A stretch of 64,000 nt of DNA. Source: Vicinamibacteria bacterium (GTDB lineage: Bacteria > Acidobacteriota > Vicinamibacteria > Marinacidobacterales > Marinacidobacteraceae). Below, piece after piece: positions 6,219-51,189 of this stretch (positions within the stretch are counted from its first letter, which is position 1; each line of letters begins with the position of its first letter). The notes beneath the pieces were generated by a model that saw only the letters and a list, made by a program, of their open reading frames with translations, did no database searches and was not told the origin of the DNA. The stretch is taken from positions 672,001-736,000 of the forward strand of contig CAXXLQ010000004.1 in NCBI GenBank assembly GCA_963668695.2, in the 5' to 3' direction. The translations under genes were made by a program, and so were the position numbers.

Positions 6219-6422
6219 TAGGTACTCATGGACAAGGTGGCGCGAGCGCCGAGAGTGGCCAGTCTCCCGGTGGGGGCGAGGCGCCCGGCGGACAAGGCGC
6301 GCGAGGGAGGAATACCTGATGTATTTCGACCGAAGCGCAACGATGAGCGGAGCGGAGCGGAGTGGTTCAGCCGGGATGGATCGCCGGTCGAACGCCGTGT
6401 CACTTTGTTCATGAGTTGCTTA
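6219..6422 (+). mobile_element. ~200-bp palindromic dispersed element, copy A (rpsE-rpmD spacer)
   Basis: Paired ends ACTCATGGACAAGGTGGC / GTCACTTTGTTCATGAGT; core CAAGGCGCGCGAGGGAGGAATAC..GTATTTCGACCGAAGCGCAACG shared with the other copies. Confidence 0.85.
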
Positions 6423-6986
6423 TGCAGAGATCTCCGCCTCGATGTGACTCACGTCCTTGCCTCGAAGCTCCGCCACGGCGGACTTGGAGCGAAGGGAGAG
6501 CAGCGCGACCATCGTCGCCTCCACCACATTCTTCGGGTTTGAGGTGCCGAGCGATTTCGTCAGGATGTCCTTGATTCCAGCAAGCTCGATGACAGCACGC
6601 ACCGGCCCACCAGCGATGACGCCCGTCCCCTCCGATGCAGGCTTGAGGAGAACCCGACCGGCGCCGAACACGCCAACGACCCCGTGAGCAATGGTGGTCC
6701 CCTCGCGGGGAATCTCGGTCAGGTTCTTCTTGGCGATCTCAATACCCTTCTTGATCGCCGCCGGCACCTCTCGGGCCTTGCCGAGACCGAAACCCACGCG
6801 TCCATCCTCATTTCCAACCACTACCAAGGCGGAAAAGGACAGGTTCTTGCCGCCCTTCACCACTTTCGTTACCCGGTTGATGGAGACGACCTTGTCCTTG
6901 AGATCAGGATCGCCGGTGCGCTCCACCTGTGTGTTGCGGGAACCGCTGCGGGGCCTCGACCGGCCGCCGAAATCCATGTTCAGCAC
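6420..6986 (-). CDS. rpsE: 30S ribosomal protein S5
   Basis: [34 protein letters not shown]; start could be ATG 6977. Confidence 0.97.
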
Positions 6987-7333
6987 TTGACGCCTCCATT
7001 CCTTACGGCGTCGGCGAGCGCCTTGATCCTGCCGTGGTAGTGAGCCCCGCCCCTGTCGAAGACAACGGTCTCAATGCCCGCAGCCCGCGCCCGTTCGGCC
7101 AGCTTCTCGCCAACTACGGTAGCGCCCTGGGCATTCCCGCCACCCTCGATCCCAGCTTCGCGACTTCCAGCAGCAACCAGAGTTCGGCCGGCGGAGTCGT
7201 CAATGACCTGCGCGTAGATGTGCTTCAACGACCGGTAGACCGCAAGCCGAGGTCGCTCGGACGTACCGACGATCTTTCGGCGAATGCGGGCATGGATGCG
7301 CTGCCTTCGCTGGCGGCGGGTGGTGATTCGCAT
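6980..7333 (-). CDS. rplR: 50S ribosomal protein L18
   Basis: [36 protein letters not shown]. Confidence 0.97.
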
Positions 7334-7366
7334 GGCTCCCTCTGTCCTCGGGATCTAATCTCGGGA

Positions 7367-7900
7367 TCAGGCCCCGGTCTTCCCGGCCTTCTTGATGAGA
7401 CGTTCGCCGGTGTAGCGAACCCCTTTCTGCTTGTACGGATCCGGCTTCCTGAGGGCGCGCATGCGCGCGGCCACCTCTCCGACGGCCTGTTTGTCAGCGC
7501 CGGACACGACGACATGGGTGTTCTTCTCGATCTGGACGTCAACTCCATCGGGGAGCGGCAACTCGATAGGGTGGGAATAACCCAGGGAAAAGGAGACTTT
7601 CCGGCCCTTTACCCGCGCGCGATAGCCGACACCGACGATGTCCAGTTCCTTCCGGAAACCTTCCGTAACTCCCGTCACGGCGTTCGCGAGGAGAGCCCTG
7701 GTGAGCCCCCAATAGGCCCGGTTCCCGGCCCCTTCCGACAGAGACACCTGAGCCACGCTGTTCTCGAGCTGCACTTCTATGCCCGGAAGAAGCGGACTCG
7801 TGAGGACGCCTTTCGGCCCCTTCACACGGACCTGCGAACTCTCGATCGTGACCGAGACTCCGGACGGGACGGGAATCGGTTTGGCGCCTATGCGGGACAT
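7367..7900 (-). CDS. rplF: 50S ribosomal protein L6
   Basis: MSRIGAKPI, LGYSHP, RKPDPYKQKGVRY. Confidence 0.98.
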   Translation of the reverse strand: MSRIGAKPIPVPSGVSVTIESSQVRVKGPKGVLTSPLLPGIEVQLENSVAQVSLSEGAGNRAYWGLTRALLANAVTGVTEGFRKELDIVGVGYRARVKGRKVSFSLGYSHPIELPLPDGVDVQIEKNTHVVVSGADKQAVGEVAARMRALRKPDPYKQKGVRYTGERLIKKAGKTGA

Positions 7901-7915
7901 GACATCAACCTCGGC

Positions 7916-8311
7916 CTACCACACCTGGCAGAGCACTTCTCCACCCACGCCGAGATGACGGGCCTGGCCCCCGGTCATCACTCCTCGGGACGTGGAAAGC
8001 AGGGTGACACCGAGCCCTCCTTGCGCCTTGGGAATCTTCTGGTACGAAACGTAGACGCGCGTTCCCGGCCGGGAAACCCTTTTCAGCCCCGTCAATGCGT
8101 CGCGGTTGCCGGGGAGCCGCCGCAACTTGATGCGGATCGCGTCCTGGGGCGGAGAGGAGCGTCGCTCCCAACCGTCCACATATCCCTCCTCGTGAAGGAT
8201 CCGCGCAATCTCCTCTTTGAGCTTCGAAGCGGGCATCTCGACAAAATCGTGCCGCGCCTGAATCGCGTTCCGGAGACGGGTGAGCATGTCAGCCACTGGG
8301 TCAGACCACAT
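7916..8311 (-). CDS. rpsH: 30S ribosomal protein S8
   Basis: DPVADMLTRLRNA, RVSRPG.RVY, STSRGVMT, GGEVLCQVW. Confidence 0.98.
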   Translation of the reverse strand: MWSDPVADMLTRLRNAIQARHDFVEMPASKLKEEIARILHEEGYVDGWERRSSPPQDAIRIKLRRLPGNRDALTGLKRVSRPGTRVYVSYQKIPKAQGGLGVTLLSTSRGVMTGGQARHLGVGGEVLCQVW

Positions 8312-8323
8312 CAGAACGCCTCC

Positions 8324-8509
8324 TTACCAACTCGCCTTGATGATGCCGGGAATTTCCCCGGCGAGCGCCAGCTTGCGGAAACACAGACGGCAGAGGCCGA
8401 ACTTCCGATAGTAGGCCCGTGGACGGCCGCAACTCAGGCACCGGTTATAGCGCCGCACCTCGAACCTCGGCCGCTTCTTTGCCTTGGCAATTAGCGATTT
8501 TTTCGCCAA
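8324..8509 (-). CDS. rpsN: 30S ribosomal protein S14, zinc-binding type Z
   Basis: 61 aa, RCLSCGRPR...LCRLCFR...KASW. Confidence 0.97.
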
Positions 8510-8542
8510 AACCCTTTCCTCTACTTCTTCAGCTCTTCAAAA

Positions 8543-9091
8543 CTACGCTTCGCGGCGGGCGAACGGCATCCCAAAGGCGCGAAGCAGTTCTCTCGCTTCC
8601 TCGTCGCTCGTCGCGGTTGTGCAGATGGTTACGTTCATGCCACGCGTCTTCTCGATCTTCGAATAGTCGATCTCGGGGAACACGGATTGGTCCGTCAGGC
8701 CCAGCGTGTAGTTCCCCCGCCCATCGAAAGCCCGTTCCGAAACGCCGCGAAAATCGTGCACCCGCGGCAACGCGATATTGATCAGCCGGTCCATGAACTC
8801 GTACATCCGCGTTCCACGCATGGTGACCCGCGCGCCGACCGGCATTCCGTCCCGGATCTTGAAGTTGGCGATGGACTTCCGGGCACGGGTGACTACGGGT
8901 TGCTGCCCGGTGATCGCAGTGAGATCGGCGACCGCGGCATCGATGAACTTATGTTCCCGCGCCCCTTCTCCTACGCCCATGTTGACGACCACCTTGGTCA
9001 CTCGAGGGACCGCGTGGACGCTCGCAATCTGCAGTCTGGCCCGCAGTTCGGGAGCGATTGTCTCCCGATACCGGACACGAAGGCGACTCAC
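8543..9091 (-). CDS. rplE: 50S ribosomal protein L5
   Basis: [31 protein letters not shown]. Confidence 0.98.
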
Positions 9092-9447
9092 TTGTCAATC
9101 ACTCCCTGGGAACGGACGCTCACCCGAACCTTGCGTCCATCGGTCAGACGGGTCCTCCCGATCCGGGTCGGGAGATTGGTCTCCGGATCCACGAGCATGA
9201 CGTTGCTGATCGCTATCGAGGCCTCTCGTTCGACGACACCACCCTTGATGTTCTGCCGCGGGTTTGCCTTCGTATGCCGCTTGATCATGTTGATGCCCTC
9301 AACGAGGACACGCCCTTTCTCCCGCAATACCCGGAGGATCCGGCCCCGCTTGCCCATGTCGCTCCCCGCCACGATCTGGACCAGATCCTTCTTGCGAACG
9401 TGCAAACGCCGCGGCGCGGGCACAGTGTTCTTGCGGGCCATCGTCAC
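9088..9447 (-). CDS. rplX: 50S ribosomal protein L24
   Basis: KOW motif [24 protein letters not shown]. Confidence 0.96.
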
Positions 9448-9812
9448 AAGACCTCCGGCGCCAGCGAAACAATCTTCATGAACTGGCGCTCGCGCAGTTC
9501 GCGGGCAACCGGGCCGAACACACGGGTTCCGGTGGGCTCGCGCTGCTCATTGATCAGTACCGCGGCGTTGTCTCCGAAGCGGATGTAAGAGCCATCGGCC
9601 CTGCGGTGCTCCTTGCGCGTCCTCACGATGACGGCCCTGACGACCGTGCCCTTCTTGACGGCACTGCCTGGAGCGGCTTCACGGACCGAGGCGGTGATGA
9701 CATCCCCGAGCCGGGCGATGCGACCCACCCCGCCGCCCAGGGGAAGAATGCAGGTCACCCGGCGAGCCCCCGAGTTGTCGGCGACCTGCAGCACCGACTG
9801 CATCTGAATCAT
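9444..9812 (-). CDS. rplN: 50S ribosomal protein L14
   Basis: [16 protein letters not shown]...[13 protein letters not shown]...SLAPEVL; 122 aa from ATG 9812. Confidence 0.98.
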
Positions 9813-10054
9813 GAGGCCCGCTCCAGAATCTTGAGCAACCGGAAGCGCTTCGTCCGAGACTGGGGGCGGCATTCCTCGATCTGAACGCGGTCTCCAATAC
9901 GGCCCTCGTTCTTCTCGTCGTGAACCGCAAAGCGGGTGGATTTCCGATACCGGCGCTTGTACAGACGGTGTTCCACCAGCCGCTCCACAAGCACCGTAAT
10001 GGTCTTTTCGGCGCCGCTCTTAACCACGGTTCCGGCCTTGATCAGTCTTGGCAT
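9809..10054 (-). CDS. rpsQ: 30S ribosomal protein S17
   Basis: [28 protein letters not shown]. Confidence 0.96.
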
Positions 10055-10087
10055 AACGTTCTTTCCGTTCGCATTCTTCTGCGGCCC

Positions 10088-10318
10088 TCAGGAACCAGCA
10101 ACGCTGCTTCCCGGGGCATCGCCCCCGATTTGGAGTTCACGCTCCCTCATGATGGTTTGTAGGCGGGCGACCTCCCGCCGCAGCGTCTGCACCTTGTGCG
10201 TGTGCCCAAGCTGACCGGTGGCGGCTTCGAGTCGGGCATCGAAGAGTTGCCGAGTCACTTCTTGCTGCTTCCTCAGGAGTTCTTCGTGAGTCAACTCCCG
10301 AATCCGGGCGGGCTTCAC
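10088..10318 (-). CDS. rpmC: 50S ribosomal protein L29
   Basis: MKPARIREL...ATGQL...RREVARLQT; synteny. Confidence 0.94.
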
Positions 10319-10737
10319 GATGCCTCCTCCTCAAAGCGACCGACGAACTGCGTTCGCACCGGAAGCTTGTGACTCGCCCGGCGCATCGCCTGAACGGCCT
10401 GCTCGCGGCTGACGCCTTCCATTTCGAAGAGAACCCGCCCCGGGCGCACCACGGCAACCCATCCTTCGGGGCCACCCTTTCCCTTCCCCATGCGGGTCTC
10501 CTGGGGCTTCTTCGTCACAGGCTTGTCCGGAAAGATCCGAATCCAGACTCGACCGGTCCGGCGGACGAACCGGGTGATGGCCACCCGCGCTGACTCGATT
10601 TGGCGATTCGTGATCCATCCCGGTTCCAGCGTCTTGAGACCGAAATCACCGAATGCCACGGTCTGGCCGGTCCAGGACTTGCCCCGCATGCGACCGCGCT
10701 GTTGTTTGCGGTACCGGGTCTTCTTCGGCATCAGCAT
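10315..10737 (-). CDS. rplP: 50S ribosomal protein L16
   Basis: [40 protein letters not shown]. Confidence 0.98.
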
Positions 10738-10761
10738 GACGTCTGTCCTCCCGGATCCTCT

Positions 10762-11466
10762 CTAGGCCCCGCGCGGCGCTGGCTCGTTAGAGCCAGAGGC
10801 TGCCGACTTCGCCGCAATCTCCGGACGCCCCGGCCGACTGACGACGTCGCTGACACCGCGATAAACCCAGCACTTCACGCCGATCTGGCCGTAGGTCGTA
10901 AAGGCCTCGGCGAACCCGTATTCAATGTCCGCCCGCAGCGTATGCAGCGGGAGTTGTCCTTCCAGATACCACTCCGCCCGGGCGATGTCGGCGCCGTTGA
11001 GCCGGCCGGCGCACCGAATCCGGACTCCCTTGGCTCCATTGCGCATGGTGTTCTCGATCGCTTTACGCATCGCCCGCCGAAAAGCGATCCGCTTCTCCAG
11101 CTGGAGGGCAATGGACTCGGCGACCAGTTGCGGGTCGAGCTCCGGCTTGATGACCTCCAGAGGACGAATGTGGACTTCCTTTCCGGTGCGCTTGCGCAGA
11201 TCCCGGGTGAGCTTTTCCACTTCGGTGCCCTTGCGGCCAATGATGATTCCGGGCCGGGAGGTGTGGATATAGATGTTGAGCTTGTTGCCCGGCCGCTCGA
11301 TCTCAACGCGTGAGATGCCCGCGTGGTAGAGGCGCTTCTTCAGAAAGCGACGCAGTTGCAGGTCTTCGTGCAGCGAGTCCCGGTAGGAACTATCCGCATA
11401 CCACCGAGAACGCCAGGTCTTGCTGTATCCAAGCCTGAAGCCGTGCGGGTGTACTTTTTGACCCAT
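10762..11466 (-). CDS. rpsC: 30S ribosomal protein S3
   Basis: [32 protein letters not shown]. Confidence 0.98.
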
Positions 11467-11468
11467 TC

Positions 11469-11828: not shown

Positions 11829-11871
11829 GGTGTCACCCCCGGCCCTGGAAAGCGCACCCGCGTCCGCGGCC

Positions 11872-12156: not shown

Positions 12157-12177
12157 GTGCTTCTACCCTTTCCGCTT

Positions 12178-13011: not shown

Positions 13012-13015
13012 CGCG

Positions 13016-14010: not shown

Positions 14011-14042
14011 GGTCACTTTCGTTATTCCTGTTGCGTCCCTGG

Positions 14043-18325: not shown

Positions 18326-18479
18326 ATCATGGAAACGCGCAGTAGCCGCCGCTATGGGTGCCCGAACAGCCCGCCGGGAACGGATCGGAAGACGGGCTCC
18401 GGGCCGAATGCGCCACCCGCCGGAATTGCCGCCGAGGCCGGTCCCCAGTGGGTTTTCCTGGCGGCGGCCGGAACCCGGA

Positions 18480-18705
18480 TAGCAGCCTGTGGACAAAGTG
18501 GCGTGAGCGCCGAGAGCGGCCAGTTCTCCCGGTGGGGGCGAGGCGCCCGGCTGACAAGGCGCGCGACGGAGGAATACCCAGTGTATTTCGACCGAAGCGC
18601 CAAGCACCGCGGAGACCCCGGAGCGAGAGGGATGGGGGACGGGAACACCCGGCCCCGGTCCCTCTTGAGCCGGGAGTGCCGCGGGACTTTGTCCACCGGC
18701 TGCTA
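18480..18705 (+). mobile_element. Palindromic dispersed element, copy B (abuts the rpoC stop)
   Basis: Ends TAGCAGCCTGTGGACAAAGT / ACTTTGTCCACCGGCTGCTA; shared core; divergent 3' arm. Confidence 0.85.
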
Positions 18706-21700
18706 ATGCACTTCTTCGGCCAGTTCGGCCGCCTGGTTGGCGTCTCGCTGAAGCATGGCCTGGCGATGCGCGTCGATCTCCTCCGGCAGTACGAAACGCC
18801 GATGCTCCGCGAGCCCGGTGCCCGCAGGAATCAGCCGACCCATGATCACGTTTTCCTTGAGCCCGCGGAGGTAGTCCACCTTGCCCATGAGCGACGCCTC
18901 CGTGAGGACCTTGGTGGTCTCCTGGAACGATGCGGCGGAGATGAAGCTGTCGGTCGCGAGCGACGCCTTGGTGAGGCCGAGCAGCGTCGGTTCTCCCTGA
19001 GCCGGCTGCCCCTCTTCCGCCAGAGCTTTCCGGTTCGCCTGGGCGAACTCATACCGATCCACCGTCGAATCAACGATCAGATCCGTGTCTCCGACGTCAG
19101 TAACCCGTACCCAGCGCATCATCCGGCTGATGATCACCTCGATGTGCTTGTCGTCGATCACGACACCCTGCAACCGGTAGACCTCCTGGATCTCGTGGAC
19201 CAGATAGCGTTGAAGCTCCCCTTCACCCAGAACCCGAAGAATGTCGTGCGGATTCCGCGGCCCGTCCATGAGCGGATCGCCGGCCCGCACTTCCTCATTC
19301 TCCCGAACGCTGATGTGGACTCCTCGTGGCACCTCGTATTCCCGAACATCGTCGGTAACCTGCGAGGTCACGGTGATCACCCGCTTCCCCTTGCGAACAT
19401 CGCCGTAATGCAACCGGCCATCGATCTCGCTGATGAGAGCGGGCGCCTTGGGCGCCCGAGCTTCGAAAAGCTCCACGACGCGCGGCAGGCCTCCGGTGAT
19501 GTCCTTTGTCTTGGTGGTCTCCCTCGGGATCTTGGCGAGAACGTCGCCCGGGCGAACGGCGTCGCCCTCCTTGACCTCAAGGTGGGCACGCGAAGGCATG
19601 AGGTAGGTCCGGGGATCTTCCCCCGCAGCACCATGGACCTCGATGCGCGGCTCGAGGCGGTCGTCCTGTGACTCGATGATCACCGGCTGCGACCGGAAGG
19701 TGACGTTGTCCACCTCCTGAATCATCGTCACGTCCGCGACGATGTCGCGGAAATGAACTGCCCCCTCTTGCTCGGCGAGAATCGAGAAGCTGTACGGATC
19801 CCATTCGACGATCACCTGGCCGGAGCTGACGGAGCTGCCGGGCGCCACCTTGATGCGGGCACCGTAGACCACCGGGTGGCTTTCGAGAACACGGCCGTCG
19901 CCGTCTCCCACTTCCACGGTACCGGCGCGGTTGATGACCACCCGATTGCCGTGCCGATCCGATACGGTCCGCAGATTCTCCGAGAACTGCAGGACGCCGT
20001 CGTGGTGCGCCTCAAGGGCGGAATTCTCGAAGACGCTCGCCGTCCCGCCGATGTGGAACGTCCGCATGGTCAGTTGCGTTCCGGGTTCTCCGATGGATTG
20101 CGCGGCGATGATGCCTACCGCCTGCCCAAGATCGACCAGCCGGCCGGTCGCGAGGTTGCGCCCATAGCACATGGCGCAGACGCCTCGCCGTGCATCACAG
20201 GTGAGGACCGACCGAATCTTGACGCGGGCCACGCCCGAGCCTTCGATCGCGGTTGCGATGTCCTCCGAGATCTCCTCACCAGCGTCCACGATGCGGTCCC
20301 CACGGAAATCTTTCACCGCTTCAAGGCTGACCCGCCCCACGATCCGGTCCCGGAGCGGCTCGATGACCTCTCCCGCCTCGATGATCGGCTCGGCGTAGAT
20401 ACCCCGGAGCGTCCCACAATCGCGCAGGGTGACGATGACGTCCTGAGCCACGTCGGCAAGCCTGCGTGTGAGGTAACCGGCGTCCGCGGTCCGGAGCGCC
20501 GTATCCGCGAGTCCTTTCCGTGCTCCGTTGGTCGAGATGAAGTACTGGATGACGCTGAGCCCCTCACGGAAGTTGCTGGTGATCGGCGTCTCGATGATTT
20601 CTCCCGACGTCTTGGCCATCAGTCCGCGCATCCCGGCGAGCTGCCGGATCTGCTTTTCGCTGCCGCGGGCGCCGGAGTCCACCATCATGAACACCGGACT
20701 GAACTGTCCGGTCTCCCGCTCCCGGGCCTGCATGGTCTTCATCATGTCCTCGGCCACCTTGTTTGTGGCATTCGACCAGACATCGATGACCTTGTTGTAT
20801 CGCTCTCCCTGCGTGATCGCGCCCTGCTGGTACTGCTCGTCGACCCGGCCCACCTCCTCCTTGGCCTCCTCGACCAGGCGCGCCTTGTTCGGCGGAACCA
20901 CGAGATCACCGAGTCCTATGGACGTTCCGCTCCGCGTCGCGTACTCGAAGCCAACATCCTTCAGGGCATCGAGGACGTCCGCAGTGCCTTCGAGGCCGTA
21001 CTGCTTGTAGACGAGACGAACCAGGCTCTGAACGCCCTTCTTCTTCAGCACCCCGTTCACAAACGGCAGATCTGCGGGAAGGCGGTCGTTCAGGATCACC
21101 CTTCCTACGGTCGTTTCGATCCGCTTCCCGTCAACGCTGGCAACCTTCACCCGGCGCAAGTCCTGACTGTCATGCGTTTCGAGGATTTCTCCAGTGAACC
21201 GCAGCTGGATCGGCGTCAGCGTAGAAACCTGGTCAAACTCGTGAGCGATCAGCACTTCCTCGGCCGAGGCGAAGCTCTGCTTCACCTCCGGCGGAACGAC
21301 CTGCGGCTTCGTCAGGTAGTAGATGCCGAGAACCATGTCCTGAGTGGGAACAGCCAGCGGCCCGCCATGTGCCGGCGAAAGAATGTTCCGGGAGGATCGC
21401 ATCAGCAACGCCGCTTCCACCTGCGCCTCCGGACTCAGAGGAACGTGGACTGCCATCTGGTCGCCATCGAAATCGGCGTTGAAGGCACTGCAGACCAACG
21501 GATGAATGCGGAGCGCCTTCCCCTCGACCAGGACCGGCTCAAAGGCCTGGATCCCAAGCCGGTGGAGAGTCGGAGCACGATTCAGCAGCACGGAATGCTC
21601 GCTGATGACCTCTTCGAGATAGTCCCAGACCTCGGGGCGCTGCTCCTCCACAAGCTCGCGTGCCTGCTTGATCGTCGCCGCGAGGCCCTCATGCTCCAAC

Positions 21701-30723: not shown

Positions 30724-30799
30724 TGGCAGGCCAGGAGGGGCTCGAACCCCCAACCCCCGGTTTTGGAGACCGGTGCTCTACCGATTGAGCTACTGGCCT
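30724..30799 (-). tRNA. tRNA-Trp(CCA)
   Basis: 76-nt cloverleaf AGGCCAG...CTCCAAA...GGTTCGAGC...CCA; rpmG-trp-secE context. Confidence 0.97.
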
Positions 30800-30863
30800 T
30801 CGCACCCCTCACATCACCAAGCGGCAATAAACCCGCGACGGAACCCGTAGGACGCATCCGAAT

Positions 30864-30911
30864 CCAACCTGACAGCCAACCTGACAGCCAATCTGACAGC
30901 CAATCTGACAG
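30864..30911. repeat. 4 x 12-bp tandem repeat CCAA(C/T)CTGACAG
   Basis: Read directly in the rpmG-tRNA-Trp spacer. Confidence 0.9.
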
Positions 30912-30964
30912 AGCCATCGCTCCGTACTCCCGATCAGCCAAGTCCATCGGCAGCCTGGGCGAAG

Positions 30965-31129
30965 TCAACGCGTCTCCCGGTGCAATACATGGGTCCTGCA
31001 GAAACGGCAATATTTGCTCAGTTCCATCCGGCCGGGATGAGTTGTCCGGTTCTTCGTCGTCGAATACGTACGCCGCTTGCAGTCCGTGCAGGCGAGCGCG
31101 ACGATCTGACGCTTCTTTTCGCGAGCCAT
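30965..31129 (-). CDS. rpmG: 50S ribosomal protein L33 (zinc type)
   Basis: [16 protein letters not shown]...[16 protein letters not shown]; start ATG 31129. Confidence 0.96.
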
Positions 31130-31229
31130 TCTTTCCCCGTCGGTTGTGCTCCGTTGGAATCTCCCATGCATGGCCCCTTCGCAGACGACTCGCGTCGCCC
31201 GCGGAGAGACATTTTTCCGTTAACGCCGC

Positions 31230-32417
<1,188 letters not shown>

Positions 32418-32500
32418 CTGGTCTTCTCCTTGTTTGCTGCGAGATTTGCTGTGAGACCTGCGGAATCAGATCGTCCCCACAGTAGGGGTGGGGGCGAGAG

Positions 32501-32575
<75 letters not shown>

Positions 32576-32671
32576 GGAGACGAGGGCGGGGGCCGAAAGT
32601 GCTCCGGATCAGCCGGACGCCGAAGCATCGGCCACGGTCCCGGGACAACACGGACTGCGCCGCGCCTTTCA

Positions 32672-32747
32672 TGGAGCGGGAGACGGGATTCGGACCCGCG
32701 ACCCTCAGCTTGGAAGGCTGATGCTCTGCCAACTGAGCTACTCCCGC
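32672..32747 (-). tRNA. tRNA-Gly(TCC), atypical T-loop
   Basis: GCGGGAG..TCAGC-CTTCCAA-GCTGA..GCGGG-TCCGAAT-CCCGT..TCCA. Confidence 0.93.
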
Positions 32748-32927
32748 ATTATGGAATGAAAGAACCGCCGACAGTGGACGAACCGGGGGGCGAACCGGCG
32801 AACTCCGATCCGCGGACGCCAGTACGGCATGTCCCCGGTGGGAGCGCGTCGGATCGACCCGGAGCGAGCCGTTGTCGGTAGTCAAAGTGGGCAAATGGCT
32901 TCGGTTGGAGGAAACTTCGGAAGGAGG

Positions 32928-33013
32928 TGGTGGAGCGGGGAGGATTCGAACCTCCGAAGGCATAAGCCGGCAGGTTTACAGCCTGCTGCGTTTGGCCGCT
33001 TCGCTACCACTCC
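32928..33013 (-). tRNA. tRNA-Tyr(GTA)
   Basis: 86 nt with long variable arm; GCAGG-CTGTAAA-CCTGC; CCA encoded. Confidence 0.96.
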
Positions 33014-33198
33014 GCCCGAAGAAAACTCCGCCGCTCACGAGACTGGAAAGCAACCTCCCTGATAACCAACCGGTCGATCCGGACCAATCATCCGGACCAA
33101 TCATCCGGATCAACCCCTCCAGACCCAGCACCGTCCGGTCCGATCCGTTAGGGTCGGACCCGAAAAGGTCCGGCCCGATGCGATCTGGCCCGATCCGG

Positions 33199-33271
33199 AG
33201 CTGGCGAAGGGACTTGAACCCTTGACCGGCTGATTACAAATCAGCTGCTCTGCCTCCTGAGCTACGCCAGC
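33199..33271 (-). tRNA. tRNA-Thr(TGT), CCA not encoded
   Basis: CTGA-TTTGTAA-TCAG anticodon arm, GGTTCAAGT; followed by CCG. Confidence 0.95.
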
Positions 33272-33368: not shown

Positions 33369-33591
33369 CAGCGGTCGGTGGGCAAAGTGGCGTGAGCGCC
33401 AAGGCCAGCCAGTTCTCCCGGTGGGGGCGAGGCGCCCGGTTGACAAGGCGCGCGAGGGAGGAATACCGAGTGTATTTCGACCGAAGCGCAACGATTGAGC
33501 GCCTCGCAGAGGCGCGATTCAGCCGGGATGTATCGCCAGCCGAGCCCCCACCGGGAGAACTGGGCCGCGTCACTTTGTCCACCGGCCGCTA
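33369..33591 (+). mobile_element. Palindromic dispersed element, copy C (abuts the rlmB stop)
   Basis: 25-bp terminal pairing with 4 G.T wobbles; shared core; two opposed 19-bp modules. Confidence 0.88.
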
Positions 33592-34389
33592 GTCCAGTCC
33601 TCGCTGCCGCACGGTTTCATACAGCACGATGCCGGTGGCGACGGAAACGTTCAGGGAGCGAACCGAGCCCAGCTGCGGCAGGGAAACAAGGACTTCGCAC
33701 TCCTTCGAGACACCCGCCGCGAGGCCTCGTCCTTCAGACCCCACCGCCAAAACGGTGGGCTGTGTCCAGTCGAACTCGTGCCAGCGAGCGGTCGCCCGCG
33801 GGGTCAGCCCGACGGTCCAGTACCCATGAGCCTTGAGCGCCCGGAGGGCACTCGCGGCGCCCGGAATCCGAACGAGGCGGGCGCGCGCAATAGCCCCCGC
33901 CGACGCTGCGATCGCTACCGCTGAGGGCGGGGCGGCACCCCGGCGAGGCACCAAAACGGCGTCAACCCCCGCGCCGTCGGCGGCGCGGACCAGCGCCCCG
34001 AAATTCCGGGGATCTTCGATGCGGTCAAGCAGCAGAAGCAGGCTCGGCTTCGGTTCGAGGGACAAAACATCCCCGAGAGACAACCACCGTATCGGTGAGA
34101 CCTCGCACGCGGCCCCCTGATGACGTGCTCCCTCGGAAATCCTGTCCAGGTGCTGATTGGGAACCCGCTGCAGCGGAACCCCACGGGCCCGGGCGATCTT
34201 CAGCAGGGCCTCATGGCGGTACTGAAGCGGTCCCGTGCGAACCAGCACCCGCCGGACCTGATTCGGGATGCCCTGCAGTGTCTCCTCCACCCTGGCCGGG
34301 CCGAAGACCCAGGTCGCCCCTCGGTCCTCGTTACTCCTTTCGGCGGATTCGGCGTCCCTCTCCGGGCGACGCTTTTCGTGCTGCGTCAT
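33589..34389 (-). CDS. rlmB: 23S rRNA Gm2251 2'-O-methyltransferase (SPOUT family)
   Basis: HQG, DPRNFGALVR, GSEGRGL, SLNVSVA. Confidence 0.9.
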   Translation of the reverse strand: MTQHEKRRPERDAESAERSNEDRGATWVFGPARVEETLQGIPNQVRRVLVRTGPLQYRHEALLKIARARGVPLQRVPNQHLDRISEGARHQGAACEVSPIRWLSLGDVLSLEPKPSLLLLLDRIEDPRNFGALVRAADGAGVDAVLVPRRGAAPPSAVAIAASAGAIARARLVRIPGAASALRALKAHGYWTVGLTPRATARWHEFDWTQPTVLAVGSEGRGLAAGVSKECEVLVSLPQLGSVRSLNVSVATGIVLYETVRQRGLD

Positions 34390-41698: not shown

Positions 41699-41910
41699 GG
41701 AAGTGTGGGTGGGTGTGTGCGTTATGGGCAGCGTTGTGGACTGGGGTGGCCGGCGATCCGGTAACGGGGAGAGGGACGCAGGAAGCGCCGTCCTCAAAAC
41801 CCTTTTCGAAAACCCTTCTCGGTGGGCCGCGGGAGAGTGCGCCTGAGAAGTCTGGTGGATGCCGCCGCGGCGCCATCCACTGCTCACCGGCAATACAGGG
41901 CCGCGAAGTC

Positions 41911-42438
41911 TAGCAGTCCATGGACGAAGTCGCGCGGCGTTCAACCGGCGCTGCATCCCGGCTGAGACGTGCCGCTCTCAGTCGTGGCGCGCAGCGACGC
42001 GGTGAACAGCCGGTGGTGGAACCCGCGTGAGCGCCGAGGCCGGCCAGTTCTCCCGGTGGGGGTCCGGCTGACAAGGCGCGTGAGGGAGGAATACCGGGTG
42101 TATTTCGACCGAAACGCAACGATGAGCGGCGCGAAGCGACGCGGTGAACAGCCGGTGGTGGAACCCGCGTGAGCGCCGAGGCCGGCCAGTTCTCCCGGTG
42201 GGGGCGAGGCCCAGTTCTCCCGGTGGGGGTCCGGCTGACAAGGCGCGTGAGGGAGGAATACCGGGTGTATTTCGACCGAAACGCAACGATGAGCGGCGCG
42301 CAGCGACGCGGTTCAGCCGGGATGGATCGCCGGCCGAGCCCCCACCGGGAGAACTGGGCCGCGTGGGTTTCATCACCGGTTGTTTGGCCGGGATGGATCG
42401 CCGGTCGAACGCCGTGTGGGTTTTGCCACAGGCTGTTG
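41911..42438. mobile_element. Nested cluster of the palindromic element (copies D1-D3) between prs and rplY
   Basis: Inverted 3' arm at 41911-41980; two cores; copy starts at 42004 and 42146; two successive 3' ends at ~42385 and ~42438. Confidence 0.88.
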
Positions 42439-42443
42439 GACCG

Positions 42444-43436: not shown

Positions 43437-43531
43437 TTCGCTGGAACGGCGGGCGACCGGCGACCGCCAACACGGAAACGCAAGTGTTGGAAGATCACGG
43501 ACGGATTAACGGCGCACACTGGATCTGAAGG

Positions 43532-43603
43532 CTGGGGCGGAAGGATTCGAACCCTCGTAGACCGGAACCAAAATCCGGCGCCTATCCCCTCGGCCACGCC
43601 CCA
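43532..43603 (-). tRNA. tRNA-Gln(TTG), CCA not encoded
   Basis: TGGGGCG..CCGGA-TTTTGGT-TCCGG..GGTTCGAAT..CGCCCCAG; ispE-tRNA-Gln-prs context. Confidence 0.93.
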
Positions 43604-44565: not shown

Positions 44566-44582
44566 CGCCAACCCCTCCCGGC

Positions 44583-44936
44583 TAACGGCCTGTGAACAAA
44601 GTCGCGCGGCCCAGTTGCGGTGAAGATGCACTCGCGCCGGGACGCCGACAACCCGGATGGCGCGCAGGCAAGGGAACGCCGGTCTTCAGACCGGCACCGC
44701 AGCCCGCAGGGCCGCGAAACCGCGTACCGCCGATCGCGAACAAGCGCGGGGACGCGGCGCCGGGCCAACGTGAGTGCAGCTCGCTCTCCCAACCCCGGAT
44801 GGCGCCACCGCCCATCGCTCCCCCTACCCGGGGCCGCGCCTTTTTCATGTTGGCGGGGCATGCAGGCGGACCCGATCATGGGGGTTTCTCCCGGTGGGGG
44901 CCTCGGCGCTCCCGCCACTGTATCCACAGGCTGTTA
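44583..44936 (-). mobile_element. Long variant of the palindromic element (copy E): family ends, unrelated interior
   Basis: Ends TAACGGCCTGTGAACAAAGT / ACTGTATCCACAGGCTGTTA; conserved core absent. Confidence 0.75.
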
Positions 44937-45137
44937 ACAGCCTGTGGTGGAACCCGGGTGAGCGCCGAGAGCGGGGAGGCGCCCGGCTGACAAGGCGCGT
45001 GAGGGAGGAATACCTGGTGTATTTCGACCGAAACACAACGCCGAGCGCCGCAAAGCGCCAGTTCTCCCGGTGGGGGGGCGGTTCAGGCGGGATGGATCGC
45101 CGCTCGAACGCCGCGTGGGTTTCACCACAGGCTGTTA
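44935..45137 (+). mobile_element. Palindromic element, copy F (shares a TA with copy E; abuts the lipoprotein stop)
   Basis: Ends TAACAGCCTGTGGTGGAACCC / GGGTTTCACCACAGGCTGTTA; shared core. Confidence 0.88.
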
Positions 45138-45989
45138 ACGCTCCGGGAGCCTGGAGGTCCGACTCAGTTCCCGGATCTCAGCCCTTTGGTAACCCGCGGG
45201 GATCCGGACCCGGAAGGAATCGGCATGCAGGGTGGCGTTCACCTCGAGTTCCTCGATGGTGAGGGTGGCCTGGACGCGCTGCGAAGCGACCTCGACCCGG
45301 CGCGGCACCTGTCGCCCCTGCCGGCGGTAGTTGCCGGGATAGCGTGCCTCGTAGCCGGGGGCCACCACCCGCCGCACCTGCGCCTCGGGCCCCGGACCAT
45401 CCCACCAGATTTCAGCGCCACTCTCGAGGACGACTGACCCGCCGGCCGGGAGCGAGCGGATGTTCGCCGGACCCCCGACGGGCGCGCCACTCCCGACGAG
45501 GAGGGCCGCAACCTGCTTGAGCCCAACGGAAACTCCTAGCAGCGGGCCGGTGAATTCGCTGAGTTCCACTCCTTCGGCGAAAGCTCGCTCCCCGGGGACT
45601 ACCAGGCGGACATCACCCGGTGCGGCAACGACGGTCCAGCGGGAGCCCCCGACCGGAGCGAAGAGTTCGAGTCTCATGGCCTCGACCGCTTCCGGGTCCG
45701 CTCCCTCGGCCGGGCGGGTGAACACGACGAGCAGACGTCCCGAAAACCGCCCCCGCTGACCTTCTCCGCGCAGGCCCACCACGGCCTGATAGCGCCGAAC
45801 GCTGGCCGCCAGGGTGGCGGTCTCGTCCAGTAGTCGAAATGCGTCGGTTTCGTTCAGGGGTACCGGCGGCATCCGGGGGTTCCGGGTAGCGCATCCGAAT
45901 GATGCCCCGATGAACCAGAGCACCAGGACCCGGAGCGCTGCGTCGCGGCGCCGGCGTCGGCCGATTCGCGGCGGCTCCGGCGGAACCAG
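45135..45989 (-). CDS. Putative lipoprotein in the lolB position between the TPR gene and ispE; start codon unresolved
   Basis: RRRRR, hydrophobic stretch, lipobox-like SFG-C; beta-rich body; LolA/LolB-like fold is inferred from synteny only. Confidence 0.65.
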   Translation of the reverse strand: MVPPEPPRIGRRRRRDAALRVLVLWFIGASFGCATRNPRMPPVPLNETDAFRLLDETATLAASVRRYQAVVGLRGEGQRGRFSGRLLVVFTRPAEGADPEAVEAMRLELFAPVGGSRWTVVAAPGDVRLVVPGERAFAEGVELSEFTGPLLGVSVGLKQVAALLVGSGAPVGGPANIRSLPAGGSVVLESGAEIWWDGPGPEAQVRRVVAPGYEARYPGNYRRQGRQVPRRVEVASQRVQATLTIEELEVNATLHADSFRVRIPAGYQRAEIRELSRTSRLPER

Positions 45990-46006
45990 GCTCGCTCGCC
46001 CGCTAC

Positions 46007-46226
46007 CAGCAGCCTGTGGACAAAGTCTCGCGGCCCAGTTCTCCCGGTGGGGGCTCGAGCGGCGATCCATCCCGGCTGAGCACTCCGCTTCGCGTCGTTC
46101 AACGTTGCGCTTCGGTCGAAATACACCCGGGCCAGTTCTCCCGGTGGGGGCTCCTCCCTCGCGCGCCTTGTCAGCCGGGCGCCTCATCGGTCTCGGCGCT
46201 CACGCCACTTTATCCACAGGCTGCTA
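46007..46226 (-). mobile_element. Palindromic element, copy G (abuts the TPR-gene stop)
   Basis: Ends CAGCAGCCTGTGGACAAAGT / ACTTTATCCACAGGCTGCTA; core on the minus strand; two 19-bp modules. Confidence 0.88.
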
Positions 46227-48239
46227 ACGGTCGTTACCAGCTTCCTCGATTTTTCGGGCGATTGCCTCTCGTTCGAGTTCCTGGTCGCCGTCGTGCTGCA
46301 GGGCCATCCGCCAGAAGCGGACCGCTTCCTCGGTGTTCCCTTTCGCCCGGTAGAGATCGCCGAGATGGTCCAAAACCACACCGTTTTCCGGCATGCACTG
46401 CTGCGCGCGAAGCAGATTCGATTCCGCCAGACTCAGGTCACCCTTCCGGAATTGCACCCAGCCGAGGCTGTCGAGGTAGGAGCCGCTATAGGGATCCTCC
46501 CTGAGCGCCCGCTGGATCAATTCCTCAGACTCATCAAGGCGATCGTTCCGGTCGGCAAGCATGAAGCCGAGGTAGTTGAGAGCCAGGTCGTGGTCAGGCT
46601 CTAGCGCAATGACGCGGCGGAACTCTTCCTCCGCTTCCTGGAGTCTTCCCTGACGCTCGAGCAGCGCAGCAAGCTGGAATCGGAATGCCTGGTCATCCGC
46701 CTTTTCTGCAAGCCACTGGCGGGCAATCCTCTCCGCGGCGGGGAGGTCTCCGGCTTCGACGTGGTGGCGGAGCAGCGCGTGCACCACTCCCCCGGTGTCG
46801 GGGTACTCGGCAACCAGGCCCCGGAGAATCCCGAGTGCCGCGTCGTGGCGGCCTGCCGCGTTCAGCACCCGAGCCTGGAGCGCTAGCAATCCGGGTTCCC
46901 CTGGCCGGTCGTCGATCAATTCCTCAACGAGTTCTGCTGCCTCATCCGGCTGGCCGGCGGCCAACCGGTTCTGCACGAGCGCAACCCGATAGCGGAACGC
47001 CTCGGGGGACTCCCCGGCGAGCTGGACGGCCTCGGCGAGTACGTCATACGCCTGGTTGTAGTCGCCGGCCTGCTCCAGGGTCTGCGCAAGGCGGCCCAGA
47101 GCTTCCCGGCGGCGGCCAAGACCGTACGCGTTCTGCGGAAGCGACACCAGGGTCTGGAATTCCTCGGCCGCCCGCCCGAACTGGCAGCGAGCGGCAAAGA
47201 CACCACCGAGCGCCAGCCTTGCCGGAACACTTCGGTCGTTCTCTTGCAGCAGCCGGACGAGCGCTGCTTCCGCGTCTTCGAGCCGCCGTTGCTGTCGCCG
47301 CACCATCGCGAGACCCATGAGCGCAATCTCGCTCCGCGGCTCGGCTGCGAGCAGGCGTTCGAATGCCTGCGCGGCCTCATCCAGCCTGCCGAGTCGGGCC
47401 AAACCGTCCGCAAGCGATAGGCGGAGCGCCTGATCGTCCGGGTATTCGATCGACCCCGCCTCGTACAGTGCTACCACTTCTGCGAGCGCCTCTTCCGGAG
47501 ACCGGCCGGGGATCTCACCGTTTCGGAGGAGATCGTCGGCCATCTCACGTGCGTCCGGCTGGCGTGGTTCGATGCGGAGGGATTGGAGGAGATAGTCGAA
47601 TGCCTGCTCCCGATCGCCCGCCGTGAGCCGAAGCTGTGCCAGGAGCAACAGTTCCCCAAAGGCATCGGGGGCCCGGCGGACAAGTTCACGAAGGTGGGTT
47701 GCCGCCTCCTCTCCCCGCTGCGAAGCAGCGAGCAGGCGGGCAAGCTCCGACCGGCTGCGGAGGTCCTCGGGGTCGAGGCGCACTGCCTCGCTCAGCGAAG
47801 AAATCGCCTGCGCGGCGGCCTCCGAGTCGTCTCCAGACCGCAGGCGCCGGAAATACACGGCGCCGAGGACCCGGTGGGCGGCGGCGGCCTCTGGATCCCG
47901 CGCTACGGCCTCGGCCGCGGCTGCCTCTGCAGCGTCGAGATCGAAAGCCGCCAGATTGAGATTGGCGATGGCGATGAGCGGTTCGGCCGCTTGCAGGTCG
48001 AGTTCCGCCGCCCTCCGGTAGGCAGCGACGGCTTCTTCCCGCCCTCCGGACATCTCGGCGAGCCACCCTTCGCCGTACACCCGATAGGCCTCGGCGACCG
48101 CATCGATAGCGACCGGTTCTTCAGCGTCGCCGGTTTGCTCGGGCTCCGTACCGGTGGAACCGGGTTCCTGAGCTCCCAACGCCGTGCCAGGCGCCGCCCC
48201 GAGGAGCGCCAGCAGAACCCAGAGGACCGTCCGCGACAT
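46224..48239 (-). CDS. Exported tetratricopeptide-repeat protein
   Basis: Signal peptide MSRTVLWVLLALLGAAPGTALG; TPR motifs ALNYLGFMLAD, YLDSLGWV, DHLGDLY. Confidence 0.9.
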   Translation of the reverse strand: MSRTVLWVLLALLGAAPGTALGAQEPGSTGTEPEQTGDAEEPVAIDAVAEAYRVYGEGWLAEMSGGREEAVAAYRRAAELDLQAAEPLIAIANLNLAAFDLDAAEAAAAEAVARDPEAAAAHRVLGAVYFRRLRSGDDSEAAAQAISSLSEAVRLDPEDLRSRSELARLLAASQRGEEAATHLRELVRRAPDAFGELLLLAQLRLTAGDREQAFDYLLQSLRIEPRQPDAREMADDLLRNGEIPGRSPEEALAEVVALYEAGSIEYPDDQALRLSLADGLARLGRLDEAAQAFERLLAAEPRSEIALMGLAMVRRQQRRLEDAEAALVRLLQENDRSVPARLALGGVFAARCQFGRAAEEFQTLVSLPQNAYGLGRRREALGRLAQTLEQAGDYNQAYDVLAEAVQLAGESPEAFRYRVALVQNRLAAGQPDEAAELVEELIDDRPGEPGLLALQARVLNAAGRHDAALGILRGLVAEYPDTGGVVHALLRHHVEAGDLPAAERIARQWLAEKADDQAFRFQLAALLERQGRLQEAEEEFRRVIALEPDHDLALNYLGFMLADRNDRLDESEELIQRALREDPYSGSYLDSLGWVQFRKGDLSLAESNLLRAQQCMPENGVVLDHLGDLYRAKGNTEEAVRFWRMALQHDGDQELEREAIARKIEEAGNDR

Positions 48240-48497
48240 AGAACGGGAATTTACCGCTGCCGGCAAGTGAGCGCCGCTCGCGCGCCGCCGTGAGCTCGGT
48301 TCCGCCGGTGGATGGAACGCTGGGCAGGTCTCCCGACGCAGCCGTTCACACCGGCAGAACTGGCCGGCGCCCCGTGGTAATGGGGCGCATCCGCCTCGGC
48401 ACCTGGCGTCTCGGGCGCCATTCGGTCCGGCGCCTCCGACAAGAGAACCGCCTGGCACTCGCTGATCAGAGGTGCGCTTCCCGAACGAGGGGAAAGG

Positions 48498-49250
48498 CTG
48501 ACGGCAGCGAACATTGTTCGCTGCCCGCCTGATCGGGGGGAATGTGTGAAAGGGGCACTCCCCCCTTCACGATCAACAACGACCCATCGGAACTCGCCAC
48601 CGCGCGCCAGCTGAACAGCGATGTGAGATCCAGGCCCGCGGAATCGCGCGTCTCGCCCGCCTGCGACGGGCGATGCCGACCGGAGGTCGGCACTCCCTTC
48701 CCACCGCGCCGTCGGGATGAACGGCAGGGCGCATTTCCCGGGACGGCGCGGACCCCGAGCAGGTAGAGACTGACGGCAGCGAACTCTGTTCGCTGCCCGC
48801 GTGACCGGGGGGAAAGTGTGAAAGGGGGCACTCCCCCTTTCATTTTCCGGAGCGCGGTAAAAGCCGCGCGCAGACGCCGGAGCGGGAGCGCCTGGGTTCG
48901 GGGTCACCCGAACCCCAGGCGCTCCTGACTCGGCAATCAACAACGACCCATCGGAACTCGCCACCGCGCGCCAGCTGAACAGCGATGTGAGATCCAGGCC
49001 CGCGGAATCGCGCGTTTCGCCCGCCTGCGACGGGCGATGCCGACTGAAGGTCGGCGCTCCCTTCCCACCGCGCCGTCGGGATGAACGGCAGGGCGCATTT
49101 CCCGGGACGGCGCGGACCCCGAGCAGGTAGAGACTGATGGCAGCGAACTCTGTTCGCTGCCCGCGTGACCGGGGGGAACGTGTGAAAGGGGGGCTCGCCC
49201 CCCTTTCACAAACCAACAACAACCCATCGGAACTCGCCGCCGCGCGCCGC
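48498..49250. repeat. Tandem array of ~272-bp multi-hairpin units (BIME-like) downstream of purH
   Basis: Unit starts at 48498, 48770 and 49134; near-identical sequence; several internal palindromes. Confidence 0.92.
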
Positions 49251-49378
49251 TGGCGCGCAAGGGAGTTTCGATGGCCGGCGCGGAGCGCCGGGCGGTTCCC
49301 GGACGGGGCCCGAACACAAACAAACACCATGGCACCCACTCGACAGCAACCCGTCGCCCCGTCCGGGGACCGCTCGAC

Positions 49379-50965
49379 CTAATGCCGAAAGTGGCGGGCG
49401 CCGGTAAGGACCATCGCCAAACCCCGCTCGTTGGCAGCGTCGATGACCTCCTGGTCCCGCACGGAACCACCGGGCTGGATCACAGCGGAAATTCCCGCAT
49501 CAGCGAGCACTTCCAGCCCGTCGGCAAACGGGAAGAACGCATCCGATGCCGCCACCGCACCATCGAGCGAGGACTGAGCCTTCTCGACCGCCAGCCGGCA
49601 GGAGTCGAGCCGGCTCATCTGACCGGCACCCACCCCGAGAAGCGCGCTGCCGCGGCCAACGACGATGGCGTTGGACTTGACGTGTTTCGCCGCCTGCCAC
49701 ACGAAGCGGAGACCCTCCCATTCGGACTCGGACGGCTCGCGCCGGGTGGCCACCCGATAGGCGGACTCGTCATCGCCGCGGTCCCAATCCTGGACCAGCA
49801 GGCCGCCCGCAACCCGCGCGAAGGTACGCCCGCTCGGAGCGAAAGCGCGGAGATCGGTCATTTCGATCAGGCGGAGGTTCTTCTTGCGGCGGAGCCGAGC
49901 GAAGGCATCCGGATGGAACGCGGGCGCGGCAATGGCCTCCAGAAACGTCGAGGCCATCTCCTTCGCGGTGTCGAGGTCTACCTCCCGGCTAAGCGCGACG
50001 ATGCCACCGAACGCTGAGACGGGATCGGTGGCTCGGGCGGCCCGATAGGCGTCCAGCAGAGTTTCGGCAACGGCGGCGCCGGCCGGGTTCGAGTGCTTGA
50101 TGATCGCCGCGGCGGCTTCATCCTGCCCGCGGGCGTTCGCGAGATCGGCGACCAGCCGAACCGCTGCATCGAGATCCAGAATGTTGTTGTAGGAGAGTGC
50201 CTTGCCGTGGAGTTGCCGGGCGCCCGGAATGCCGGCGCGCCCGGGTCCCGCGTCGCGGTACAGGGCAGCGGCCTGGTGAGGATTCTCCCCGTAGCGGAGT
50301 TCGGCCACTCTTTCGAACTCGACGGAGACCCGTTCGGGGAAGGCAGCGTCGTCGGCTCCTGGCGCGGCGAAGGAAGCCGCCACGGCGCGGTCGTAGGCAG
50401 CGGTGGCCTGGAAGGCAGTGGCGGCGAGCCGGCGGCGGAGCGCCAACCCGGCGTCGGGCTCGGGATCGTCCAGGGCGGCAAGCACCGCCGCATAGTCGGC
50501 GGAGTCCACGACCACTGCGACGTCCGGCCAGTTCTTGGCCGCGGCGCGGACCAGGCAGGGCCCTCCAATGTCGATGTTCTCTCGAACTTCGTCCTCTTCG
50601 GCCCCTCGGGCCACCGTCTCTTCGAAGGGGTAGAAATTCACCACGACCACATCGATGGGCTCGATGCCGAGTTCGCGAAGGGAGGCGAGGTCATCGGGAC
50701 GCGAACGCCGAGCGAGGATCCCCCCATGGATTCGCGGATGGAGGGTCTTGACGCGGCCATCGAGGATTTCGGGATGTCCGGTCACCTCGGAAACCCCCCG
50801 TACCGCGATGCCGCAATCCTCAAGAAATCGCGCCGTGCCACCACTGGCCACGATCTCGAACCCGCGCTCCACCAGACCGCGGGCGAAGGCGTCGAGACCT
50901 TCCTTGCGGCTGACGCTGAGCAACGCACGTCGCGGAGTGGGGGCGTTGTCGGTCGGGTCATTCAT
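49379..50965 (-). CDS. purH: Bifunctional AICAR transformylase/IMP cyclohydrolase
   Basis: [51 protein letters not shown]; start ATG 50965. Confidence 0.98.
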
Positions 50966-50986
50966 GGGGCGAAGGGCGGCGGATGC

Positions 50987-51189
50987 TAGCAGCCCACGAA
51001 CAAAGTCACGCGGCGTTCGAGCGGCGATCCATCCCGCCTGAAACACTCCGCTGCGCGTCCTTCATCGTTGCGCGTCGGTCGAAATACACCCGGGCCAGTT
51101 CTCCCGGTGGGGGCTCCTCCCTCGCGCGTCTTGTCAGCCGGGCGCCTCGCCGCTCCCGGCGCTCGCGCCACTTTATCCGCGGACTGCTA
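50987..51189 (-). mobile_element. Palindromic element, copy H (between divergent purH and selA)
   Basis: Minus-strand ends TAGCAGTCCGCGGATAAAGT / ACTTTGTTCGTGGGCTGCTA pair with 4 G.T wobbles; shared core. Confidence 0.88.

Follow-up and report, generated by a model that had tools for sequence, protein, structure and literature searches.

A 19-nucleotide module recurs at several sites of a hairpin MITE and in other sequence contexts of Vicinamibacteria

Can a sequence of fewer than 20 nt be copied to new genomic places in its own right? This question is raised by a stretch of 64,000 nt from a Vicinamibacteria bacterium (assembly GCA_963668695.2, contig CAXXLQ010000004.1, positions 672,001 to 736,000; the whole stretch is called the window here), in which the 19-mer CCAGTTCTCCCGGTGGGGG, designated M, recurs inside copies of a miniature inverted-repeat transposable element (MITE). 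We analyzed M in the window, in the source assembly (G000; 4.095 Mb in 4 contigs, the window being C4:672001-736000) and in related genomes, which carry the other G-numbers. G000 is a metagenome-assembled genome (MAG) that is 91.7% complete with 9.3% contamination, and its duplicated regions raise the counts by a few per cent. Our results suggest that M is probably, though by no means certainly, a very small, non-coding, sequence-defined module that is mobile or spreads by copy-and-paste.

Sites of M within its host MITE

The window contains 11 exact copies of M (chance expectation 0.08; none of 100 shuffles gave 11), and no further match appeared in it when up to three mismatches were allowed, which confirmed, position by position, the recurrence described by the initial annotation. 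In G000, M was found 1123 times as an exact word and 1526, 1613 and 1655 times with at most one, two and three mismatches, respectively; at one mismatch the strands were balanced (765 forward and 761 reverse). The host is a TTAA-flanked hairpin MITE of ~180 bp with the ends CAGCCTGTGG... and ...CCACAGGCTG, two copies of which can adjoin at a single TTAA. A hidden Markov model (HMM) of this element, made from 87 M-free full-length copies, gave 1460 nhmmer matches in G000; as the element is nearly palindromic, many loci were matched on both strands, and the best strand was kept per locus, leaving 950 loci, 446 of them full length and in one piece. In the fold of the consensus, HMM positions 9-61 pair with 136-187 to give a long stem, and there are two internal hairpins.

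Every M copy in the window lies inside a match of the element HMM; five positions of the element are used, with M pointing in the same or in the opposite direction. Genome-wide, the same five positions reappeared, in agreement with the claim that at least five distinct sites are used in both orientations: among the 446 full-length copies, M occupies L2+ in 128, L3+ in 141 (often as two tandem units with a period of 18 nt), AL- in 192, B+ in 58 and R1- in 176, and the minor sites L2-, R3- and R2- in 7, 5 and 3, respectively, while 118 copies are free of M. These full-length copies display 51 M architectures, including 30 of the 32 presence/absence combinations of the five main sites. At every site with at least 10 inserts of at least 8 nt relative to the M-less HMM, all common inserts were M or a piece of M. 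In addition, the modal 18-mer reached a frequency of 0.89-0.93 at AL, R1 and L3, whereas host 18-mers had a mean of 0.257 and a maximum of 0.666, which bears out the earlier remark that the arms are less well conserved than M.

The individual copies in the window illustrate this variety. Site L2, in the 5' arm, is filled in the plus-strand host copies at 6229..6426 (M at 6259..6276, +), 18479..18711 (M at 18520..18538, +) and 33370..33596 (M at 33409..33427, +; this host copy was supported by the HMM, alignment and folding). It is filled again at 42186..42204 (+), where host copies (one full, three partial) form a cluster at 41906..42443. The same cluster carries M at L3, just before CCGGCTGAC, both in a truncated element (42044..42062, +) and 6 nt past the L2 copy (42211..42229, +), as well as at R1 (42339..42357, -). 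R1, the inverted site of the 3' arm, is further occupied at 33545..33563 (-), where folding pairs M with the copy at 33409, and at 46035..46053 (+) in the minus-strand host copy at 46004..46228. In the latter, M also stands at AL (46132..46150, +; identified by exact match and alignment), in place of the ATA of the GGAATAC hairpin, and AL is again filled at 51095..51113 (+) in the minus-strand copy at 50983..51192. Site B, in the second internal hairpin, is filled at 45058..45076 (+), where one partial and one full host copy are joined at TTAA (44899..45141). With regard to imperfect copies, the one at 6259, identified by alignment, is indeed one base short (a T), whereas that at 51095, initially described as one G short, is a full 19/19 match; the degenerate copy suspected near 44884 was located at 44882..44900 (+), in a truncated element and with its first four bases altered.

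In elements with M at both L2 and R1, the opposed copies form a 20-bp perfect stem (free energy -70.5 kcal/mol, z -7.4) and the rod is kept, as had been proposed from the window; a MITE copy with AL and R1 only has a weaker fold (-55.9 vs -70.5 kcal/mol). Occupancy of L2 and L3 is independent though the two sites are 7 nt apart (odds ratio (OR) 0.75, p 0.26), and occupancy of AL and R1 is positively associated (OR 5.4, p 1.5e-16). An origin of the 3'-arm sites by mirror-image copying across the rod was considered and rejected: R1 lies ~8 nt off the position opposite L2, and the truly opposite sites, R2 and R3, are the rare ones. Two unusual arrangements were also observed in G000. At C4:1097379-1097451, four to five tandem 18-nt M units occupy site L3 of one MITE copy. 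Mini-elements of ~70 bp, in which two outer MITE arms are fused through one M at the hairpin tip, occur at C4:668228 (3.8 kb before the window) and at similar loci, in three flank classes of 5-6 copies each.

M in other repeats, genes and genomes

The initial annotation had seen the word only inside element copies. This is true of the window but not of the genome, in which 1358 of the 1526 copies (at most one mismatch) lie within element matches and 168 lie outside. A distribution independent of the element, which had been named as grounds for abandoning the idea, is thus seen for 11% of the copies, and this share argues for autonomy of the module and not against the finding. Most of the outside copies are located in unrelated small hairpin repeats, on the loop side of the stem and in either arm, with the CCAG end of M beside CCGG. 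One such family, resembling repetitive extragenic palindromic (REP) sequences, carries M in the context GGAACGCCGG^M^CCTTCAGACCGGC or in the mirror context GATGC(C/T)GG^M^CCTGAAGACCGGC (carets mark junctions), with 20 and 24 filled copies vs 97 and 133 empty ones. Further contexts include GACCTCCGG^M^CCGGCA, GGTCGGCGG^M^CCCCTCGC and tandem arrays in which M repeats every 18 nt. When flanks were clustered, this genome gave 21 context classes with at least three copies, plus 47 singletons or doubletons.

Three protein genes, in three species, also contain M in frame as an 18-nt gain that is missing from their orthologues. In G000, a gene for a resistance-nodulation-division (RND)-type efflux pump (open frame of 1066 amino acids) carries a minus-strand M that codes for PHRENW. 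The aligned segment measures 450 nt in G000 and G001 vs 414-432 nt in 25 other genomes (24 genomes of family f1 were searched, then 3 more), and the DNA alignment has 20 nt in place of the central CG of the palindrome CCCGCGCGGG. A coaBC-like gene of G010 is 18 nt longer than that of its nearest relative, G003, and the inserted block is absent from all four orthologues compared (G003, G014, G004 and G000); the site lies in a length-variable region, with orthologues of 342-381 nt, of which the three besides that of G003 have 345, 345 and 381 nt. In the third gene, found in G012, the region spans 360 nt compared with 342 nt in G007, G000 and G004 and 336 nt (24 nt shorter) in G005, and the M block is likewise absent from these four orthologues. 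Because a homologous M-bearing donor is absent for these sites, the three gene copies represent true insertions.

Examination of the junctions revealed that each insertion of M adds a net 18 or 19 nt. Clean gains of 19 nt with exact empty alleles were found at L2+ (GCGG^CGAGG) and L2- (GAGG^CCGG), in the REP-like loops (GCCGG^CCTTCAGA) and at CTCCGG^CCGGCA; in such clean cases M sits at CGG^C(C/G) and may face either way. Copies at AL, R1, B and single-unit L3, and those in the three genes, add a net 18 nt with replacement of 1-4 target bases, and no target duplication was seen for them. M is followed by C in 86% of the copies, and a G stands at position -2 in 91%. The two orientations are symmetric: at L2, M(+) comes after CCGG and M(-) before CCGG, and the same is seen on the two arms of the REP-like hairpin. 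Within each site, the junctions are uniform.

M (at most one mismatch) was detected in 21 of 41 related genomes, which are not independent of one another. It was present in all 15 other genomes of the genus (7 to ~740 copies) and in four further genera of the family (1 to 255 copies), whereas none was found in 16 genomes of two other families of the order; M-free relatives include G017, G021, G022 and G024. Thus, copy number ranges from 7 to 1526 within a single genus. The positions used also vary. In G019, M fills an L2-like site of the same MITE family as well as a mirror site resembling R3. In the MITE of G018, it stands at a site like L2, behind CCGGCTGAC, at R3 and, in two copies, in the B region, with a diverged M variant at R1. 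In G016, G023, G007, G010 and G012, M resides chiefly in other repeats. Across genera M is identical at 19/19 positions, while the host elements there match the G000-built HMM weakly. The suggestion that a fixed oligomer is written repeatedly therefore held up well beyond the window, and the writing events appear to be independent, with five main and three minor MITE sites, other genera, hairpin repeats and three genes. At loci L006, L011 and L013 of G018, we also observed partial duplications of the form CCAGTTCTCCCGG-CCAGTTCTCCCGGTGGGGG, in which M is nested in M after CCCGG or its first 13 nt are duplicated in tandem.

A scan of genome contigs gave at least 95 stretches with M, and the matches listed were nearly all from Vicinamibacteria or other Acidobacteria MAGs. 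Among these matches, single exact copies were also noted on a 6-kb Gammaproteobacteria MAG contig and on a 253-kb Acidimicrobiaceae MAG contig, which could be due to mis-binning, chance or transfer. In the literature search, the genus name Marinacidobacterium was not mentioned.

Copying, exchange and the competing explanations

About 273 kb of G000 is present twice at ~99.3% identity (C1 with C4:304-421 kb, C3 with C4:3505-3538 kb, and C4:13-148 kb with C4:3783-3913 kb), probably representing two strains or unresolved overlaps. These pairs allow turnover to be followed in place. Six of their 124 indels are 18 nt long, and five of these six are M units; three of the five are presence/absence differences at L3 without flanking microhomology, and in at least one L3 case 150 nt on either side are identical. 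In the L3 cases, the base after M covaries, being T with one unit and C with none or two. Similar differences are seen between genomes. At the window locus 6229, M is present at L2 in G000 and missing in the orthologous element of G001; at 33370, M occupies AL in G004, with the usual AL junction, and not in G000; and at 46004, whose orthologues in G001 and G004 differ in M content, L2 is empty in G000, holds M(+) in G001 and holds M(-) in G004, R3 being filled in G004 only.

Single-nucleotide polymorphisms (SNPs) of the host tell a related story. For the 34 common SNPs, pairs more than 10 nt apart have a mean r2 of ~0.07, and all four gametes (at least 5 copies each) are seen in 95-100% of such pairs; M-SNP pairs are as unlinked as SNP-SNP pairs. 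Positions 100-180 nt apart, on opposite arms, show higher linkage (0.157). The MITE family is a fine-grained mosaic with covarying arms, from which we infer short-patch exchange between MITE copies. Therefore, the M combinations inside the MITE probably reflect few insertions together with MITE amplification and short-patch exchange, and each MITE site may have arisen once.

The observations show that M is occasionally copied to new places in G+C-rich DNA, most cleanly at CGG^C(C/G), with targets including the centre of GGCC, other short palindromes, and loops or stems of hairpin repeats. It enters in either orientation with its CCAG end beside CGG, adding 19 nt, or a net 18 nt where 1-3 target bases are replaced. 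In the explanation that we favor, it would subsequently multiply passively as the MITE transposes, and the short-patch exchange that shuffles SNPs would also move it among MITE copies, generating nearly all combinations. The copying step would depend on the sequence of M itself, because the word is identical across genera while its hosts diverge; the same identity suggests that only intact M is copied. Copying would be carried out by host replication or repair, through template switching or oligonucleotide-like patching at hairpin-prone DNA, or by an unrecognised protein, a Y1 transposase or reverse transcriptase appearing unlikely. Templated insertion, one of the mechanisms raised by the initial annotation, is possible. 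We regard it as conceivable but doubtful that M is the substrate of a dedicated unrecognised insertion system, protein or oligonucleotide-guided, which writes a 19-20-nt word beside CGG in hairpin-prone DNA; such a system would rely on none of the transposase, recombinase or reverse transcriptase families known to do so.

Several observations weigh against a module that is copied on its own. Simple insertion does not account for the junctions at AL, R1, B and L3, where 20-21 nt stand in place of 2-3 nt, and even the clean +19 junctions permit a reading in which a 16-nt core is accompanied by GGC as a 3-nt direct repeat. The uniformity of junctions within each site fits one origin per site. At locus 46004, the SNPs flanking L2 switch together with the M state, as patch replacement predicts, and because SNPs are as unlinked as M sites, both the 30 of 32 combinations and the in-place differences are explicable without new insertions. 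The modal frequency of M columns (0.98-0.997 vs 0.64-0.90 in host flanks of the same copies) is inflated, since these columns were picked with at most three mismatches, a bias of which the length-based 18-mer count is free. Copy numbers in G000 are slightly inflated as well, owing to its contamination and ~7% duplicated sequence. Finally, neither an enzyme nor a template was found, so that the mechanism is one that we infer only; in particular, the few copies in G007, G010, G012, G016 and G020 have no shared single-copy context that would point to a master template gene.

It might thus be argued that M is immobile, and that a few old accidental insertions or duplications in ancestral MITEs were followed by amplification and gene conversion. 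Uniform junctions per site, equally unlinked host SNPs and M sites, flanking SNPs that switch with M at orthologous loci and the association of AL with R1 all agree with this possibility. We nevertheless consider it unlikely, as it leaves unexplained the presence of M in hairpin repeats of other kinds and in three unique genes whose orthologues have empty sites, its differing positions and 19/19 identity in other genera, and both orientations at one site; the confinement of the RND pump insertion to G000 and G001 also counts against it. Another interpretation is that M is a functional motif, such as a host-protein binding site or an RNA/DNA signal, which is kept by selection and repeatedly recruited into intergenic repeats. 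Although this would account for the extreme conservation within and between genera and is compatible with the lack of strand bias (765 vs 761), it is in our opinion improbable: selection does not generate such a block of 19 nt where there was none, and some process of insertion would still be required, the in-frame copies in the RND pump, coaBC-like and third genes look mutational, and a range of 7 to 1526 copies in one genus is typical of selfish bursts. M also lacks a fold of its own (z +0.68, not significant; an equal or better fold was given by 151 of 200 shuffles). The protein-binding tag that had been proposed earlier is likewise a poor fit with the in-frame gene insertions.

Known mobile machinery gives even less satisfactory explanations. 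Elements of the insertion sequence (IS) families IS200/IS605 and REP systems favour hairpin DNA, and movement of M by a REP-associated tyrosine transposase (RAYT), an IS200/IS605 TnpA or a reverse transcriptase with an RNA template would be in line with this preference, with insertion beside a short target in either orientation without clear duplication, and with tandem 18-nt units, which could suggest repeated template copying. We regard such an origin as very unlikely, given that Y1_Tnp (PF01797) had 0 matches in the M-rich genomes G000, G004, G018 and G019, that no RVT_1 (PF00078) match was seen in G000 or in 13 of the genus's 15 other genomes, a check of genomes with abundant M (G000, G004, G008, G018 and G019) likewise giving none, and that M is neither palindromic nor significantly folded, its ends not being inverted repeats. 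Least credible of all is the idea, also put forward initially, that M is the footprint or attachment-like scar of a larger element (IS110/IS1111-type, integrative or cut-and-paste) that left the MITE. IS1111-type elements target hairpin repeats, in which M indeed sits, and a target duplication is not obvious. However, the halves of M are not split: the 5' half runs on as M in 1303 of 1365 occurrences, the commonest other continuations being single-base variants, and the 3' half behaves alike. No larger unit bounded by M was found in G000, where just 15 inverted M(+)...M(-) pairs lie 400-3000 bp apart, M had 0 matches in viral contigs, and its tandem arrays reach four to five units with an 18-nt period. 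Taken on its own, M does not qualify as a MITE, given its lack of terminal inverted repeats, nor does it qualify as a REP/RAYT element, as an IS110-type scar or as the product of a reverse transcriptase.

Comparison with known small repeats

Mobile DNA shorter than ~50 nt is, to our knowledge, almost unknown. The closest known case appears to be the small dispersed repeats (SDRs) of Nostocaceae, of which SDR4-6 were reportedly described by Elhai and colleagues in 2008 (Genome Res 18:1484). SDRs are 21-27 nt long, and M, at 18-19 nt, is somewhat shorter, occurs in another phylum and rides mainly in a TA/TTAA MITE, as well as in frame in genes. The passages available from later papers describe SDRs as repeats of some 20 bp that are sometimes tandem and 'might be mobile' (PMC2884548), state that the insertion site of SDR5 could be the HIP1 palindrome and that SDRs were not found outside Nostocaceae (PMC5861425), and list them as candidates for a REP/RAYT-like origin (PMC3116915). 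Judged by these descriptions in citing papers, M is similar in being ~20 nt long, high-copy, dispersed and sometimes tandem. Orthologous sites in three genes and at several MITE loci also differ in whether they carry M, which inserts at short palindromes (GG^CC, CGG^C and the centre of CCCGCGCGGG), nested in the MITE and in REP-like hairpins. In these passages no enzyme is named for SDRs, and none was found for M.

Other repeats share single features with M. Pneumococcal BOX elements (boxA-boxB(n)-boxC) and the bacterial interspersed mosaic elements (BIMEs) of E. coli contain an optional short module, in variable number, within a larger hairpin repeat of mosaic structure, and M resembles them as an optional module that gives mosaic architectures in a hairpin-forming repeat. 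However, we know of no BOX or BIME module outside its own element, whereas M is found in genes and in a number of unrelated repeats, with many positions and either orientation represented. Rickettsia palindromic elements are selfish palindromes of 100-150 bp that are tolerated in frame in coding sequences; M is likewise found in frame in protein genes, but there it is 18 nt long and not palindromic. Like REP sequences and their hairpin-forming doublets (REPINs), M is a short, high-copy intergenic sequence tied to hairpins, although M-rich genomes are without a Y1 transposase match and M itself does not fold.

Among the 15 of 130 papers listed for nested short repeats, judged by title and opening of the abstract, none reports a short module within bacterial MITEs. 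In the passages available from papers, the only set of such tiny mobile repeats named was the Nostocaceae SDRs of 2008, with no enzyme named. M would add a second, unrelated lineage, with thousands of copies in complete long-read MAGs and 7 to 1500 copies per genome within a genus. Its insertions in unique genes, together with this range of copy number, offer a comparative handle on how such words get written. M also has consequences for its genomes, where it reshapes a MITE of very high abundance, lengthens proteins by six residues and causes breaks in short-read assemblies. If a dedicated system did exist, it would make up a new class, that of 'nano' mobile DNA, to which the cyanobacterial SDRs would in principle also belong.

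Host MITE polymorphism and other features of the window

The presence of the host MITE is itself polymorphic. The 33370 copy is found in G000 and G004, whereas G008 and the closer relative G001 cleanly lack it. The copy at 6229 is missing from G004 and G008, and so is that at 50983, where a contig of run X13 joins across the locus. Short-read contigs break at MITE copies. A 32-bp satellite array that was also compared with M is unrelated to it. An Rfam scan of the whole window gave only 6 tRNAs and no match at the elements; these six tRNA genes lie on the minus strand, in 30727-33271 and 43532-43603, and five of them are clustered. Near 32 kb of the window, the G+C content climbs from ~0.60-0.63 to 0.65-0.70.

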